From Malacoraja senta (Eukaryota): a DNA stretch of 64,000 nucleotides. Positions 18,220 to 22,533 of this stretch are shown one piece after another; position 1 is the stretch's first letter, and each line of letters begins with the position of its first letter. The notes under the pieces are model-generated. The model did no database searches and was not told the origin of the DNA. It saw only the letters and a program-made list of their open reading frames with translations. Position numbers and translations under genes: made by a program. Location: assembly GCA_038087875.1 (NCBI GenBank), contig CM075989.1, positions 20,400,001-20,464,000 of the forward strand. Reading direction: 5' to 3'.

Positions 18220-19762
18220 AATGTTATCAGAATGCTGCCTGGATTAGAGGGTATTAGCTACAAGTGGAAATTTGACAGATTTGGATTGCTTGCTCTGGAG
18301 TTTGAGCAGAGATCGGATAGAACTGTGTAACATTATGAGAGGCATGGATAGGGCAGACATGCAGAGCTTTTCCCCAGGGTGAAAATGGCAAAGACTAGAG
18401 GGCATAGTTTTAGGCGAGAGTGGCTAAAAAAGATGTGGAGGGCAAGTTTTTTTTTACACACACAGGGTGGTGGGTACCTAGAACATGCTGTCAGTGATGG
18501 TGGTGGAGGCAGTGGTATTTAAGATGCTTTTGGATATGCTCAGATATGCAGCGATTGGAGGGGTACGGATCATGTTCAGGCAGAGGAGATTAGTTTATTT
18601 GGGGGAGGAAGGAACTGCAGATGCTGGTTTAAACCGAAGATAGACACAAAAAGTTGGAGCAACTCGGCGAGACAGGCAGCATCTCGGGAGAGAAGGAATG
18701 CGGGTTGAGACCCCTCTTCAGACTGGTTAAGGATAAGGGAAACGAGAGATATAGACGGTGATGTAGAGAGATAAAGATGAAAAATATGCAAAAAAAGTAA
18801 CGATGATAAAGGAAACAGCCATTGTTAGTTGTTTGTTGAGTGAAAATGAGAAGTTAGTGCGACTTGGGTGGGGGAGGGATGGAGAGAGAGAGAGAGGAAA
18901 TGCCGGGGTTACCTGAAGTTGGAGAAATCAACATTTATACCACTGGTAGACAAAAATGCTGGAGAAACTCAGCGGGTGAGGCAGCATCTATGGAGCGAAG
19001 GAATAGGCGACGTTTCGGATCGAGACCCTTCTTAGCACCACTGGGCTATCTTCAGTTTATTTGGCATCATATTTGACATGGACATTGTGAGCTGAAGGAC
19101 CTGTTCCTGTACCGTACTGTTCTATGTTCCCATGTGCACGACAAGCAGAAGGATTGTTAATTCCAATGTTAATCCAGGAGTATTGTGTGCAGTTTTGGTC
19201 CCCTAATTTGAGGGGAGTGCAGCGTAGGTTTACAATCTTGCTATTGAGGGAGTGCAGCGTAGGTTTACAAGGTTAATTCCCGGGATGGCGGGACTGTCAT
19301 ATGCTGAGAGAATGGATCAGCTGGGCTTGTAAACTCTGGAGTTTAGAAGGATGAGAGGGAATTTCATTGAAACATATAAGATTGTTAAGGGACGATCTCA
19401 TTGAAACATATAAGATTGGACACTCTAGAGGCAGGAAACATGTTCCTGATGTTGGGGGAGTCCAGAACCAGGGGCCACAGTTTAAGAATAAGGAGTAAGC
19501 CATTTAGAACGGAGACGAGGAAACACATTTCTCACAGAGAGTGGTGAGTCTGTGGAATTCTCTGCCTCAGAGGGCGGTGGAGGCAGGTTCTCTAGATGCT
19601 TTCAAGAGAGAGCTAGATAGGGCTCTTAAACATAGCGGAGTCGGGGGATATGGGGAGAAGGCAGGAACGGGGTACTGATTGGGGATGATTAGCCATGATC
19701 ACATTGAATGGTGGTGCTGGCTCGAAGGGCTGAATGGCCTACTCCTGCACCTATTGTCTATT
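18220..19762 (+). mobile_element. Two CR1 3' fragments with nested Penelope repeats
   Basis: Units ~18220-19130 and ~19175-19762 with RMLPGL / EYCVQFWSP motifs and CR1 tails. Confidence 0.8.
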
Positions 19763-20352
19763 AATCCCAATGCCTTTGTATGGACCCTTCTTTTCACCTT
19801 CATTAAATATGTATTTTTGTACTATCACCATCCTGGATATTGTGACTGTTTTTCTGGCTCCACAACACTTGCACTGATGCATCCCAAGTACATGACCAAC
19901 ATCAGACAGAACAAACAATGGCAAAACAAATGACAATGGGAACACAGTAAAACAGGACCAAAGCAAAATGGATTGGAGAAAAGCAAAAGTTGTGTGAATA
20001 AAATGACAGAAAAGGTTACAAGTGTGAATTTAATATCCATGCAGGTAAGAAAAGATACAGTAAAAACTTTTGTAAAACTGTAAAAAGGGACAAAAGAAAA
20101 ACAGAATTAAATGACTAAGGAAGAGTCGCGAGTGCTGACCACAGAACAATGAAATTCTTACTTGCAGCAACATAACAGGTCTGCAAAAGCAAAGCACAAA
20201 GATAATATTTACTGTAATAAACTAAAAAACAATAAATTAATAACCACATTACCGGTGCAAAAAAAACCCCCAGTAGTCCTTAGTGCAACCAAAGATAGTC
20301 CATAGAAGTTCATCGTTCATCAAGCCTAGAGATGAAAAGACAAAAGGTTGTG

Positions 20353-21495
20353 CCGAAGTCTGCCAACAGGAGAAGGTGTGCCAAGGCTGTGTCGCAAGCT
20401 AAACAGGGCCAGTGGATGAGATGGGAGAGTGTGGAAAAGAGGAAGTTCAGCTGGACGGACATGTGGGAGATGGAGGCGAGCAGGATAAGTTTTCTCATTC
20501 GTGCAACCTATGATGTCCTTCCTAGCCCAAAAAATCTCAACCAATGGCTGGGCGAAGATCCATCATGCCCCCTGTGTTCAACACCAGCCACGCTTAGGCA
20601 CATCCTCACTGGGTGTAAAGTAAGCCTCTCCCAAGGACGGTACACCTGGAGACATAATCAAGTGCTTAAATGCCTGGCAGCGACTCTGGAACGCAGGAGA
20701 ACAACCAACAATGCCCTGCCGCCCAGAACAACCAACCCAGTTAAGCCAATTACCTTTGTTTGGGAGGGGGAACAAAGGCAATGGAAAATTCCACCAAGGA
20801 CCAGGTTTGGACAGCTGGAGGCAGCCCGGGATTGGCAGTTGCTGGTGGATGTGGACCAACGGCTTACAGTTCCATCAGAGATAGCCATCACCAACTTGAG
20901 GCCTGATCTTGTGCTCTGGTCGAACTCTCAGCGCATGGTGTATTTTGTGGAGCTCACAGTCCCTTGGGAGGATGCTGTGCAGGAAGCCTTAGAAAGAAAG
21001 AAACTGCGATACACAGAGCTTGCAGCGGAGGCAGAACAGCGGGGCTGGAGAGCTAAGATCTGCCCGGTAGAAGTTGGATGTCGAGGATTCGTGGCAACAT
21101 CAACCGTAAGTGATGAAGGACCTGGGGATCAGCGGACAAGCCCTACGCCAGGCCATCAAAGAAACAGCACGGGTGGCAGAGCGGAGTAGCCAGTGGCTCT
21201 GGCTGAAGAAGAAAGACCCCATTTGGTCTCCCAAATAACCGACTAGACAGATGCAGAGGGGGGTGGTTCTGGGATGCCAGAATGCACCGCTGAGCCTACT
21301 GGAGACGTTGTGGGTTCGATCAGCGAAACGTCGATGAAAGTAGGTGCCCACTTGATAACCCCAATGACGTGTCTGCCTCGCCTTTCCCAACATCGGAGGA
21401 GCATGGGTGAGTGCAGAAGGCTCCCATCACCACCGGGAGCAAGTTGATATTTGGCACTTTGGATTTTTAACATCTTGTCCTGTGTATTTGGAAAC
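20353..21495 (+). mobile_element. Hero-clade RLE non-LTR retrotransposon, 5'-truncated
   Basis: ORF 20332-21189 has CPLC..H..C zinc knuckle, RHNQVL, RPDLVL, ELTVPWE, KKLRY, PVEVGCRGF (restriction-like endonuclease); frameshift near 21110 continues ..AERSSQWLWLKKK..W to TAA 21236-21238; flanked by a ~70-bp duplication. Confidence 0.85.
21258..21362 (+). ncRNA. Structured Hero 3'UTR element (kink-turn plus two pseudoknot pairings)
   Basis: Complementary pairs GCUGA/UCAGC, CCUACU/AGUAGG, GACGUU/AACGUC, GUGGGU/GCCCAC, GGGG/CCCC; GAU bulge with tandem G-A, A-G, A-G. Confidence 0.6.
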
Positions 21496-21754
21496 AGTGC
21501 ACCAAATATAGTCCATACAAGTTCAGCGTTCATCAAGCCTAGAGATGAAAAGACAAACGGTTTGTGAGATTGAGAGGTCAGGAGCTGAGAGGCCAGAAGA
21601 ATGGATGTAGATGAATGGGGAAATGGGGGCGGGATAGTGGGGGAAATTGTGTGCATATCTAGATGGGGCACAGGGAAGGGGGAAGATAGGGGGAGTTGTT
21701 TGTTTATTTACCTAAAATTGGCAATTCAATGTCCATACCATTGGGTTGCCATAA

Positions 21755-22115
21755 GGAATAGGAACAGAATTAGGCCATGCGGCCCATCAAGTCTACTCCG
21801 CCATTCAATCCTGACTGATCTCTCTTTCCCTCAACCCCATTCTCCTGCCTTCTCCCCATAACATCTGACATCTGTACTAATCAAGAATCTATCTATCTCT
21901 GCCTTAAAAATATCCACTGACTTGGCCTCCGCAGCCTTCTGTGGCAAAGAATTCCACAGATTCACCACCCTCCGACTAAAGAAATTAGTCCTCATCTCCT
22001 TTCTAAAGTAACGTCCTTTAATTCTGAGGTTATGACCTCTAGTCCTAGACACTCCCACTGGTGGAAACATCCTCTCCACGTCTACTCTATCCAGGCCTTT
22101 CACTATTCTGTACGT
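21755..22115 (-). mobile_element. CR1 LINE 3' fragment
   Basis: KGLDRVDVERMFP..RTRGHNL..RVVNLWNSLPQKA. Confidence 0.85.
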
Positions 22116-22533
22116 TTCATCGACCTTTTTGGTCACATCTTCAAAACCAAAAATCAGATTTGTGAGACGACATACCACGTACAAAATCATGCTGACTATC
22201 CCTAGTCAGCCTGGTTGGAGAACTAAGATTGGGGAGGGATGGAGGGTTACTTGCTTATTCACTGTTCTTCACCAGCCTGTTAGTTTCCTCTCAACCACTT
22301 GAAATATGTTCGCACCCTCATCATTGCAAGTCCATCTATTCATAGCAACAACCCCCTGTGGTTGGAAGAGAGTCATTTGCCTTGTGGTCTGTCCTTTTGC
22401 AACTTCAGAGATCTCGTCTTTGCTGAGAGCTTGCAGAGCATCAGTCGGGATCATCGCGCTGAAGAAAGCGACGAAACCACAGGGAAACTACAGAGAGCCT
22501 CGTAACTGAGGTTCTCCATCTTCTGAGGAAGGC

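Follow-up and report, generated by a model that had tools for sequence, protein, structure and literature searches.

Hammerhead ribozymes of types I to III, as described in the available part of PMC3088659, share the NUH triplet, the GAAA segment, CUGANGA or its U3-A8 variant (natural hammerheads with U3-A8 are known), and the A15.1-U16.1 and G10.1-C11.1 pairs; they are built around a three-way junction in which stem II is formed from the strand that follows A9. According to PMC11300833, in the part available, a pseudoknot in place of helix II keeps hammerhead activity; in that PK hammerhead the pseudoknot comes from the helix IV loop and is accompanied by a minor-groove triplex. Among mobile elements, Penelope-like elements (PLEs) and retrozymes carry hammerheads and occur as tandem or partial-tandem copies, and ligation of their RNA into a circle has been proposed; the PLE ribozymes are type I hammerheads that lie in pLTRs and cleave as dimers, and retrozymes are non-coding LTR elements (PMC6765202, available in part). 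R2 elements encode a reverse transcriptase (RT) and a restriction-like endonuclease (RLE) in a single ORF, have a structured 3' RNA and are processed by a ribozyme, which is 5' and HDV-like; their insertion is site-specific and priming takes place at the RNA 3' end (PMC12222951 and PMC13580325, both available in part).

The motif described here lies in the window, by which we mean the whole 64-kb stretch of DNA that was analyzed, in the tail of a Hero-like element with the following features.

20352..21496, plus strand: copy of a Hero-like RLE non-LTR retrotransposon of family 1, 5'-truncated, frameshifted and without poly(A)
Near 21496, plus strand: fixed 3' end of family 1
20352..21238, plus strand: ORF remnant with a CCHC knuckle and restriction-like endonuclease motifs; the family stop TAA is at 21236-21238
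20282..20349, plus strand: upstream copy of a target-duplication-like direct repeat of 62-68 bp (68 nt at 92.6%; 62 nt at 94%)
21496..21562, plus strand: downstream copy of this repeat, flanking the element
21454..21485, plus strand: 3'-terminal stem-loop (predicted fold; sequence common to families 1 and 2)

This copy is a dead 1.15-kb fragment; in the same genome, the scored members of its family number at least 40, with identities of 94-96%. A young sister family in that genome, family 2, has intact ORFs of 1,181 amino acids with RVT_1 and a unit of 3,954 nt, its units being more than 99.6% identical. Exact 24-mer matches in the genome numbered 454 for family 2 and 72 for family 1, copy numbers here coming from exact patterns only. 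As in R2, RT and RLE lie in a single ORF, and the best PDB match is R2 itself (E 1.7e-24). Homologs of the protein are present in fishes, lamprey and amphioxus, and these hosts agree with the species tags given in the available part of PMC7650587. Hero insertion is mostly non-site-specific according to PMC4640811 (available in part), and the Hero-like copies studied here have unrelated flanks, that is, they are dispersed and inserted without site specificity, unlike R2. The Hero label was taken over from the original prediction; it fits by architecture and by the hosts of the homologs, not by placement on a tree with the named HERO families.

Several further observations were made on these elements and their surroundings. 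Very long repeats resembling target duplications, of 58-224 bp, lie on both sides of 5 of 41 family-2 copies and of the window copy (loci with long flanking repeats: L015, L155, L164, L165, L182 and L183), and none were found at most family-2 copies within the 600/300-nt windows searched. The flanks at window positions 19180-19770 and 21740-22205 resemble what we take to be CR1-type LINE tails, common in cartilaginous fishes. Two different Hero-like families (L089 and L093) lie head to tail on one 9-kb metagenome contig. Hero-like sequence also appears in bacterial-labelled records (L111, L112 and protein P0226; Brevinema MAG, Thalassococcus, Vibrio), where it is probably host contamination.

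The original prediction placed a double pseudoknot with a k-turn, a 5' hairpin and a closing helix in the tail, 20 nt past the stop codon. That distance holds, as TAA 21236-21238 is the stop of the family frame, and every segment that had been named is present at its coordinates and complementary as described. The parts are listed below in standard hammerhead numbering, with NUH denoting the cleavage triplet.

21258..21261, plus strand: 5' strand of P0, pairing with 21359-21362; an arm of the four-way junction
21262..21288, plus strand: hairpin Pa, the second arm of the four-way junction
21289..21293, plus strand: 5' strand of stem II (pk1), pairing with 21320-21324, with G21289 as G10.1 opposite C11.1 at 21324
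21295..21303, plus strand: 5' strand of the NC helix, pairing with 21339-21344, and k-turn n-strand 3n-1n
21304..21309, plus strand: 3'-side strand of stem III, ending in G16.2-U16.1 and then N17 (21309)
Between 21309 and 21310, plus strand: predicted cut
21310..21315, plus strand: stem I strand 3' of the cut (pk2), pairing with 21346-21351
21320..21332, plus strand: 3' strand of stem II (21320-21324), G12-A13-A14 (21325-21327) and the stem III strand A15.1-C-G-U-C (21328-21332)
21333..21344, plus strand: k-turn bulge GAU, 1b-3b GAA and 3' strand of the NC helix
21346..21362, plus strand: partner strand of stem I (21346-21351), core U3-U4-G5-A6-U7-A8-A9 (21352-21358) and 3' strand of P0 (21359-21362)

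Stems I and II are thus the two pseudoknot helices, with a short linker between them, and stem III is the C helix. The latter had been given as 6 bp; five of these pairs stand, but the sixth, U21309-A21327, is not a pair, since 25 of 30 family copies have C at position 21309 and, among 36 families, U, C or A stands there opposite an invariant A. In the hammerhead register, 21309 is N17 and A21327 is A14.

As copies of the same family are about 95% identical and give no covariation signal, divergent relatives were fetched. These comprised the best 80 of 325 metagenome loci, at 40-80% amino-acid identity, plus the 2 loci returned by a search of genome contigs, which are probably contamination; none of the 6 candidates from viral contigs was a relative. 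Family 2 was added as a further family. A descriptor of the motif matched 50 of the 82 foreign loci, 15 others having tails shorter than 260 nt and 17 failing the strict rules. It gave no match in 3600 dinucleotide shuffles and only one, this motif, on both strands of the 64-kb window. From 55 descriptor matches, 36 tails less than 85% identical were retained for alignment. A covariance model based on these tails matched 72 of the 82 foreign loci, in every case in sense orientation and after the endonuclease region, with no match in five long-tailed loci (L033, L043, L079, L085 and L106).

In the MAFFT alignment of the 36 tails, 86.6% of cells were paired against 64.1% when shuffled, and the covariation score was 0.636 against 0.204 (slid controls, 0.18 at most). 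Paired cells per helix amounted to 99.3% for pk1, 97.7% for pk2, 99.4% for the C helix and 92.7% for the NC helix, percentages that lean high since the tails were picked partly on pairing. Up to six pair types per position were seen in the pseudoknot helices and the C helix. Along the protein tree, both partners changed on 80 branches, compared with about 13 expected from mismatched columns, and a single partner changed on 49 branches, compared with about 183 for mismatched columns; as this tree is independent of the tails, the joint-change count is unaffected by shared ancestry. On a plain sequence alignment, only 50% of cells were paired in P0 and 70% in the 5' hairpin. When P0 and Pa were anchored on the core, a flush junction was obtained in 30 of the 36 tails, and in 1-4 when they were shifted. 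A nested thermodynamic fold of the window missed the structure (z -0.77; pair probability of the NC and C helices about 0.09), and such a fold was not accepted as a test, since pseudoknots and k-turns are both outside what ViennaRNA can model. The fold is real and conserved among related elements: across the 36 divergent tails, covariation is seen in the C helix, the NC helix and the two pseudoknot helices, and the predicted structure of double pseudoknot, k-turn, 5' hairpin and closing helix is borne out by covariation.

Beside these variable helices, the same alignment has invariant columns reading U, GAAA, UGA and A. The corresponding segments in the window are NUH at 21307-21309, GAAA at 21325-21328 and YUGANRA at 21352-21358 (here UUGAUAA, the U3-A8 variant). 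The pair U16.1-A15.1, which closes stem III, was found in 36 of 36 tails and G16.2-C15.2 in 35 of 36; N17, unpaired between stems III and I, was U in 15, C in 11, A in 10 and G in none; and the G10.1-Y11.1 pair next to G12, with its G from the upstream strand, was G-C in 31 and G-U in 4 (the descriptor had demanded A15.1 and none of U16.1, G16.2, N17 and G10.1-Y11.1). N3-N8 was C-G in 33, U-A in 2 and U-G in 1, where the descriptor allowed only C or U at 3 and G or A at 8. The U3-A8 and U3-G8 variants fall in one clade, with one joint and three single changes on the tree, and the U3-A8 form appears to have arisen only once or twice among the 36.

The core letters emerged also when they were not asked for. 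A structure-only parse without core letters returned all three core segments in 32 of the 36 tails and two segments in 2 more, with GAAA, unasked, in 34 and YUGANRA directly 3' of stem I in 32. Applied to the held-out, distant loci L077 and L082, it recovered the entire architecture together with the core; among the remaining held-out loci, several were degenerate. Four held-out loci (L060, L090, L102 and L105; three copies of one family, of the L090/L102/L105 type, plus one other locus) have A at position 12, at CpG sites, for which either decay or an inactive subfamily may be responsible. In all, eleven or more invariant letters stand in exact hammerhead register. Judged from sequence, the motif is a complete hammerhead core in non-canonical wiring, which the original prediction missed. 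Neither the window region nor any of six foreign loci had a meaningful match in Rfam, and the invariant letters do not match, by eye, those of HDV, twister or pistol ribozymes.

The wiring differs from that of the types I to III described above as follows: stems I and III are in register, with stem III extended here through the k-turn; and the three-way junction with stem II from the strand after A9 is replaced by a four-way junction with P0 and Pa. The would-be canonical 10.1-11.1 was paired in 2 of 36 tails. A canonical stem II, in monomer or dimer, was considered and rejected, its strands not being complementary; it is missing because the strand after A9 is unpaired with the strand before G12. 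Instead, A9 runs on into P0, which in 30 of 36 tails joins the 5' hairpin and stem II without a linker, so that the flush four-way junction stands in for the A9-10.1 link, an argument that draws on the stacking of helices at four-way junctions. With no canonical stem II formed after A9, activity would depend on the geometry of this junction. Since its connectivity is not that of types I to III, the motif is classed as a new topological variant and not as a member of those types. With the PK hammerhead (PMC11300833, available in part) it shares a helix II made from a pseudoknot helix and a retained core, but it has two pseudoknots, a flush four-way junction and a k-turn arm.

A standard k-turn (3-nt bulge, 1b.1n G.A, 2b.2n A.G) is present in the window and in 26 of 36 families, with U at L3 in 18 of the 26. 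The k-turn therefore stands as predicted in the window but is not universal, and the invariance expected of its G.A pairs was not found, as they are absent in the other 10 families, where plain bulges or loops replace it. At L069, L084, L087 and L095 there is a plain 3-nt bulge, and the core and all helices are kept. In the window, 3b.3n is A.G. K-turns with A.G at this position fold in Mg2+ without protein, according to the available part of PMC4382518, and by the rule given there 18 of the 26 standard k-turns are of the protein-independent type. The same source allows a comparison with Kt-7 and the SAM-I riboswitch, which share the 3-nt bulge, G.A, A.G, 3b.3n = A.G and a kink that serves tertiary contact; the Hero k-turn differs in being set in a ribozyme arm and in giving way to plain bulges or loops in some families. 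Its role looks architectural. In our proposed geometry, the k-turn would bend the extension of stem III back, the NC helix would hold stems I and II together at their far ends, and this clamp would take the part played by loop-loop contacts in other hammerheads.

The structure had originally been read as the template-recognition RNA of Hero. A non-catalytic element bound by the Hero protein, perhaps with SNU13/L7Ae, would be in keeping with a conserved fold that is always in the 3' tail, with genomic copies that are all uncut across the predicted site, with the frequency of the standard k-turn and of U at its L3, and with the binding of a 3'UTR pseudoknot by R2Tg (PMC12222951, available in part). 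However, this reading leaves unexplained the invariant hammerhead letters, the H position that is never G and the 3-8 pairing. Furthermore, the motif is not 3'-terminal. The R2Tg element is the last 67 nt of its UTR in that source, whereas the predicted Hero cut is followed by a further 187 nt (family 1) or 205 nt (family 2) before the fixed 3' end is reached, and the end itself has a stem-loop of its own. The absence of the k-turn in 10 of 36 families and the protein-independent type of most 3b.3n pairs also speak against a protein-binding element. We consider a template-recognition role very improbable as the main function; it is not the best reading of a motif whose invariant letters are those of the hammerhead core. 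Putative binding of L7Ae at the k-turn is possible, as is a secondary, putative protein-binding role for the motif. The stem-loop at 21454-21485 is a candidate template-recognition or priming signal. Its family-2 counterpart lies in the final 60 nt; in distant families, a smaller hairpin ending in CUGUAU is found at the matching place.

Cleavage of the motif is predicted, with considerable confidence, after N17, at window position 21309. On a linear template, a cut this far before the fixed 3' end, which lacks poly(A), would be hard to understand. From 150 protein matches, 47 family-2 loci were taken, picked for long frames and not at random; 6 ran off the fetched stretch and 41 were resolved. 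All 41 insertions have the same 3' end to the base, and their 5' ends are scattered over the unit. In 24 of the 41, the insertion runs seamlessly past the unit start into the tail of a further unit, the longest reaching 9,486 nt, or 2.4 units, and 4 of the 41 hold two junctions and exceed two units. The unit junctions are letter-identical in 32 of 34 cases. Among the first 30 of 143 matches to the unit start, in genome order, 27 had their own tail (at least 71 nt) upstream, and in 19 of these 30 the whole ribozyme motif was there. The window's own family wraps around as well, in 1 of 20 long family-1 fetches (L210). Of the foreign contigs, 10 of 46 pass from the tail into 5'UTR-type hairpins, with the reservation that assemblies may collapse repeats. 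This pattern fits reverse transcription round a circular RNA. There is a likeness to PLEs and retrozymes, whose tandem copies and proposed circles were mentioned above; unlike these, Hero belongs to the autonomous RLE non-LTR elements, and its tail holds a large ribozyme in a single copy. Compared with R2, the ribozyme is hammerhead-like and follows the ORF, and copies wrap past the unit start.

The sequence past the fixed 3' end, the "5' UTR", has features of its own. The base that follows the fixed end is T in 34 of 41 family-2 copies, which is the next base of the unit. At about positions 1-130 of the unit (L143-L152), short hairpins capped by GAAA/GAGA-type loops follow one another with UGAC spacers, and the same arrangement was seen in distant families (by pattern in 10 of 46 foreign loci: L040, L041, L062-L064, L067, L070, L078, L093 and L110) and at the L210 junction. 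It is possibly a protein-binding or translation signal.

The predicted cut is unscarred in genomic copies, in 30 of 30 for family 2 (first 30 of 454) and in 29 of 30 for family 1 (first 30 of 72), so the template must be either re-ligated or uncut. An active hammerhead would not by itself demand a covalent circle: it might define the 5' end of a linear RNA, or leave a nicked RNA clamped together, with tandems arising by R2-type template jumping. Template jumping by the R2 RT is reportedly in print, which was counted in favor of this possibility. Two copies begin at the predicted cut, with an ambiguity of 3-4 nt: L282 (family 2, longer than one unit), and L243 (family 1), where an inverted 5'UTR piece is joined at the cut near position 1500; both fit the use of some linear cleaved templates. 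In addition, among 30 unit starts there are 3 that lie no more than 10 nt from the junction, where about 1 is expected. However, 5' ends do not pile up at the unit junction or near the predicted cut (within 60 nt of it, 0 of 41; in other samples, 1 of 30, 0 of 30 and 1 of 30). Template jumps leave non-templated bases, and no extra bases are present at 32 of 34 junctions or at 30 of 30 cut sites. We therefore regard an active hammerhead without a circle as unlikely. Some 168 nt before the junction, 5' ends cluster in 3 of 30 cases, which by a rough estimate is not significant.

The alternative in which the template is uncut would have the hammerhead-derived fold act as a stabilizer, or as a slow switch biased toward ligation, the tandems being copied from uncut transcripts of tandem arrays. 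PLEs do occur as tandems with weak hammerheads (PMC6765202, available in part), and the frequent U at N17 and the uncut state of the copies point the same way. Linear copying with 5' truncation, however, can only shorten arrays, yet this family, whose units are nearly identical, includes copies of more than two units (4 of 41), so that arrays must somewhere be lengthened. The conservation of the catalytic G12 and G8/A8 positions is also not in favor of a fold that merely stabilizes, and we give this alternative hardly any weight.

The reading that we prefer, and regard as likely, is that a self-cleaving ribozyme yields a unit-length RNA that becomes a circle and is copied by the RT from a fixed internal site. 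In this mechanism: a copy longer than one unit would be transcribed; two successive ribozyme copies would excise exactly one unit; the ends of the unit would be ligated into a circle; and the RT would prime internally at the terminal stem-loop, roll on and stop at random after one or more rounds. The circularization step, by the ribozyme or by a host ligase, is probable, though we hold it with somewhat less assurance than the cut. Other points weigh against the mechanism. The cut halves share about 20 bp, and for a circle to form they would have to change partners by a step that is not accounted for. N17 is most often U, which makes a slower triplet. Little could be drawn from RNA: one contig of 3,921 nt, from a sequencing run presumed to be of RNA, shows a single unit in circularly permuted form, as would be expected of a tandem transcript no less than of a circle, and the 34 raw RNA reads that could be placed, with no pile-up of ends, were too few to be informative. 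In its most specific form, that Hero LINEs replicate via circular RNA made by their own hammerhead of new topology, which would both cut and re-ligate an RNA of 4 kb, with an R2-type RT that primes internally and rolls past the start, the proposal is a tentative one. In the literature searched, which did not extend to Repbase Reports or most subscription papers, we found no link between Hero and a hammerhead, k-turn, ribozyme or circular RNA.

If the proposal is true, a rolling-circle life cycle would exist in an autonomous RLE non-LTR clade, and the "3' UTR" and "5' UTR" of Hero would be one continuous stretch, so that the annotation of Hero would change in its element ends and in its possible donor copies. 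There would also be a hammerhead architecture that Rfam models miss, with at least hundreds of copies in this one vertebrate genome; relatives carrying the motif reach down to 41% protein identity. Such an architecture would reveal which of its backbone links a hammerhead can do without. As R2-type RTs are under development as tools for gene insertion, a natural enzyme that primes internally and copies circles, together with a ribozyme that circularizes long RNA, would be of practical interest. These elements also open a direct and cheap test of circular RNA templates, which have long been proposed for autonomous retrotransposons and remain unproven.
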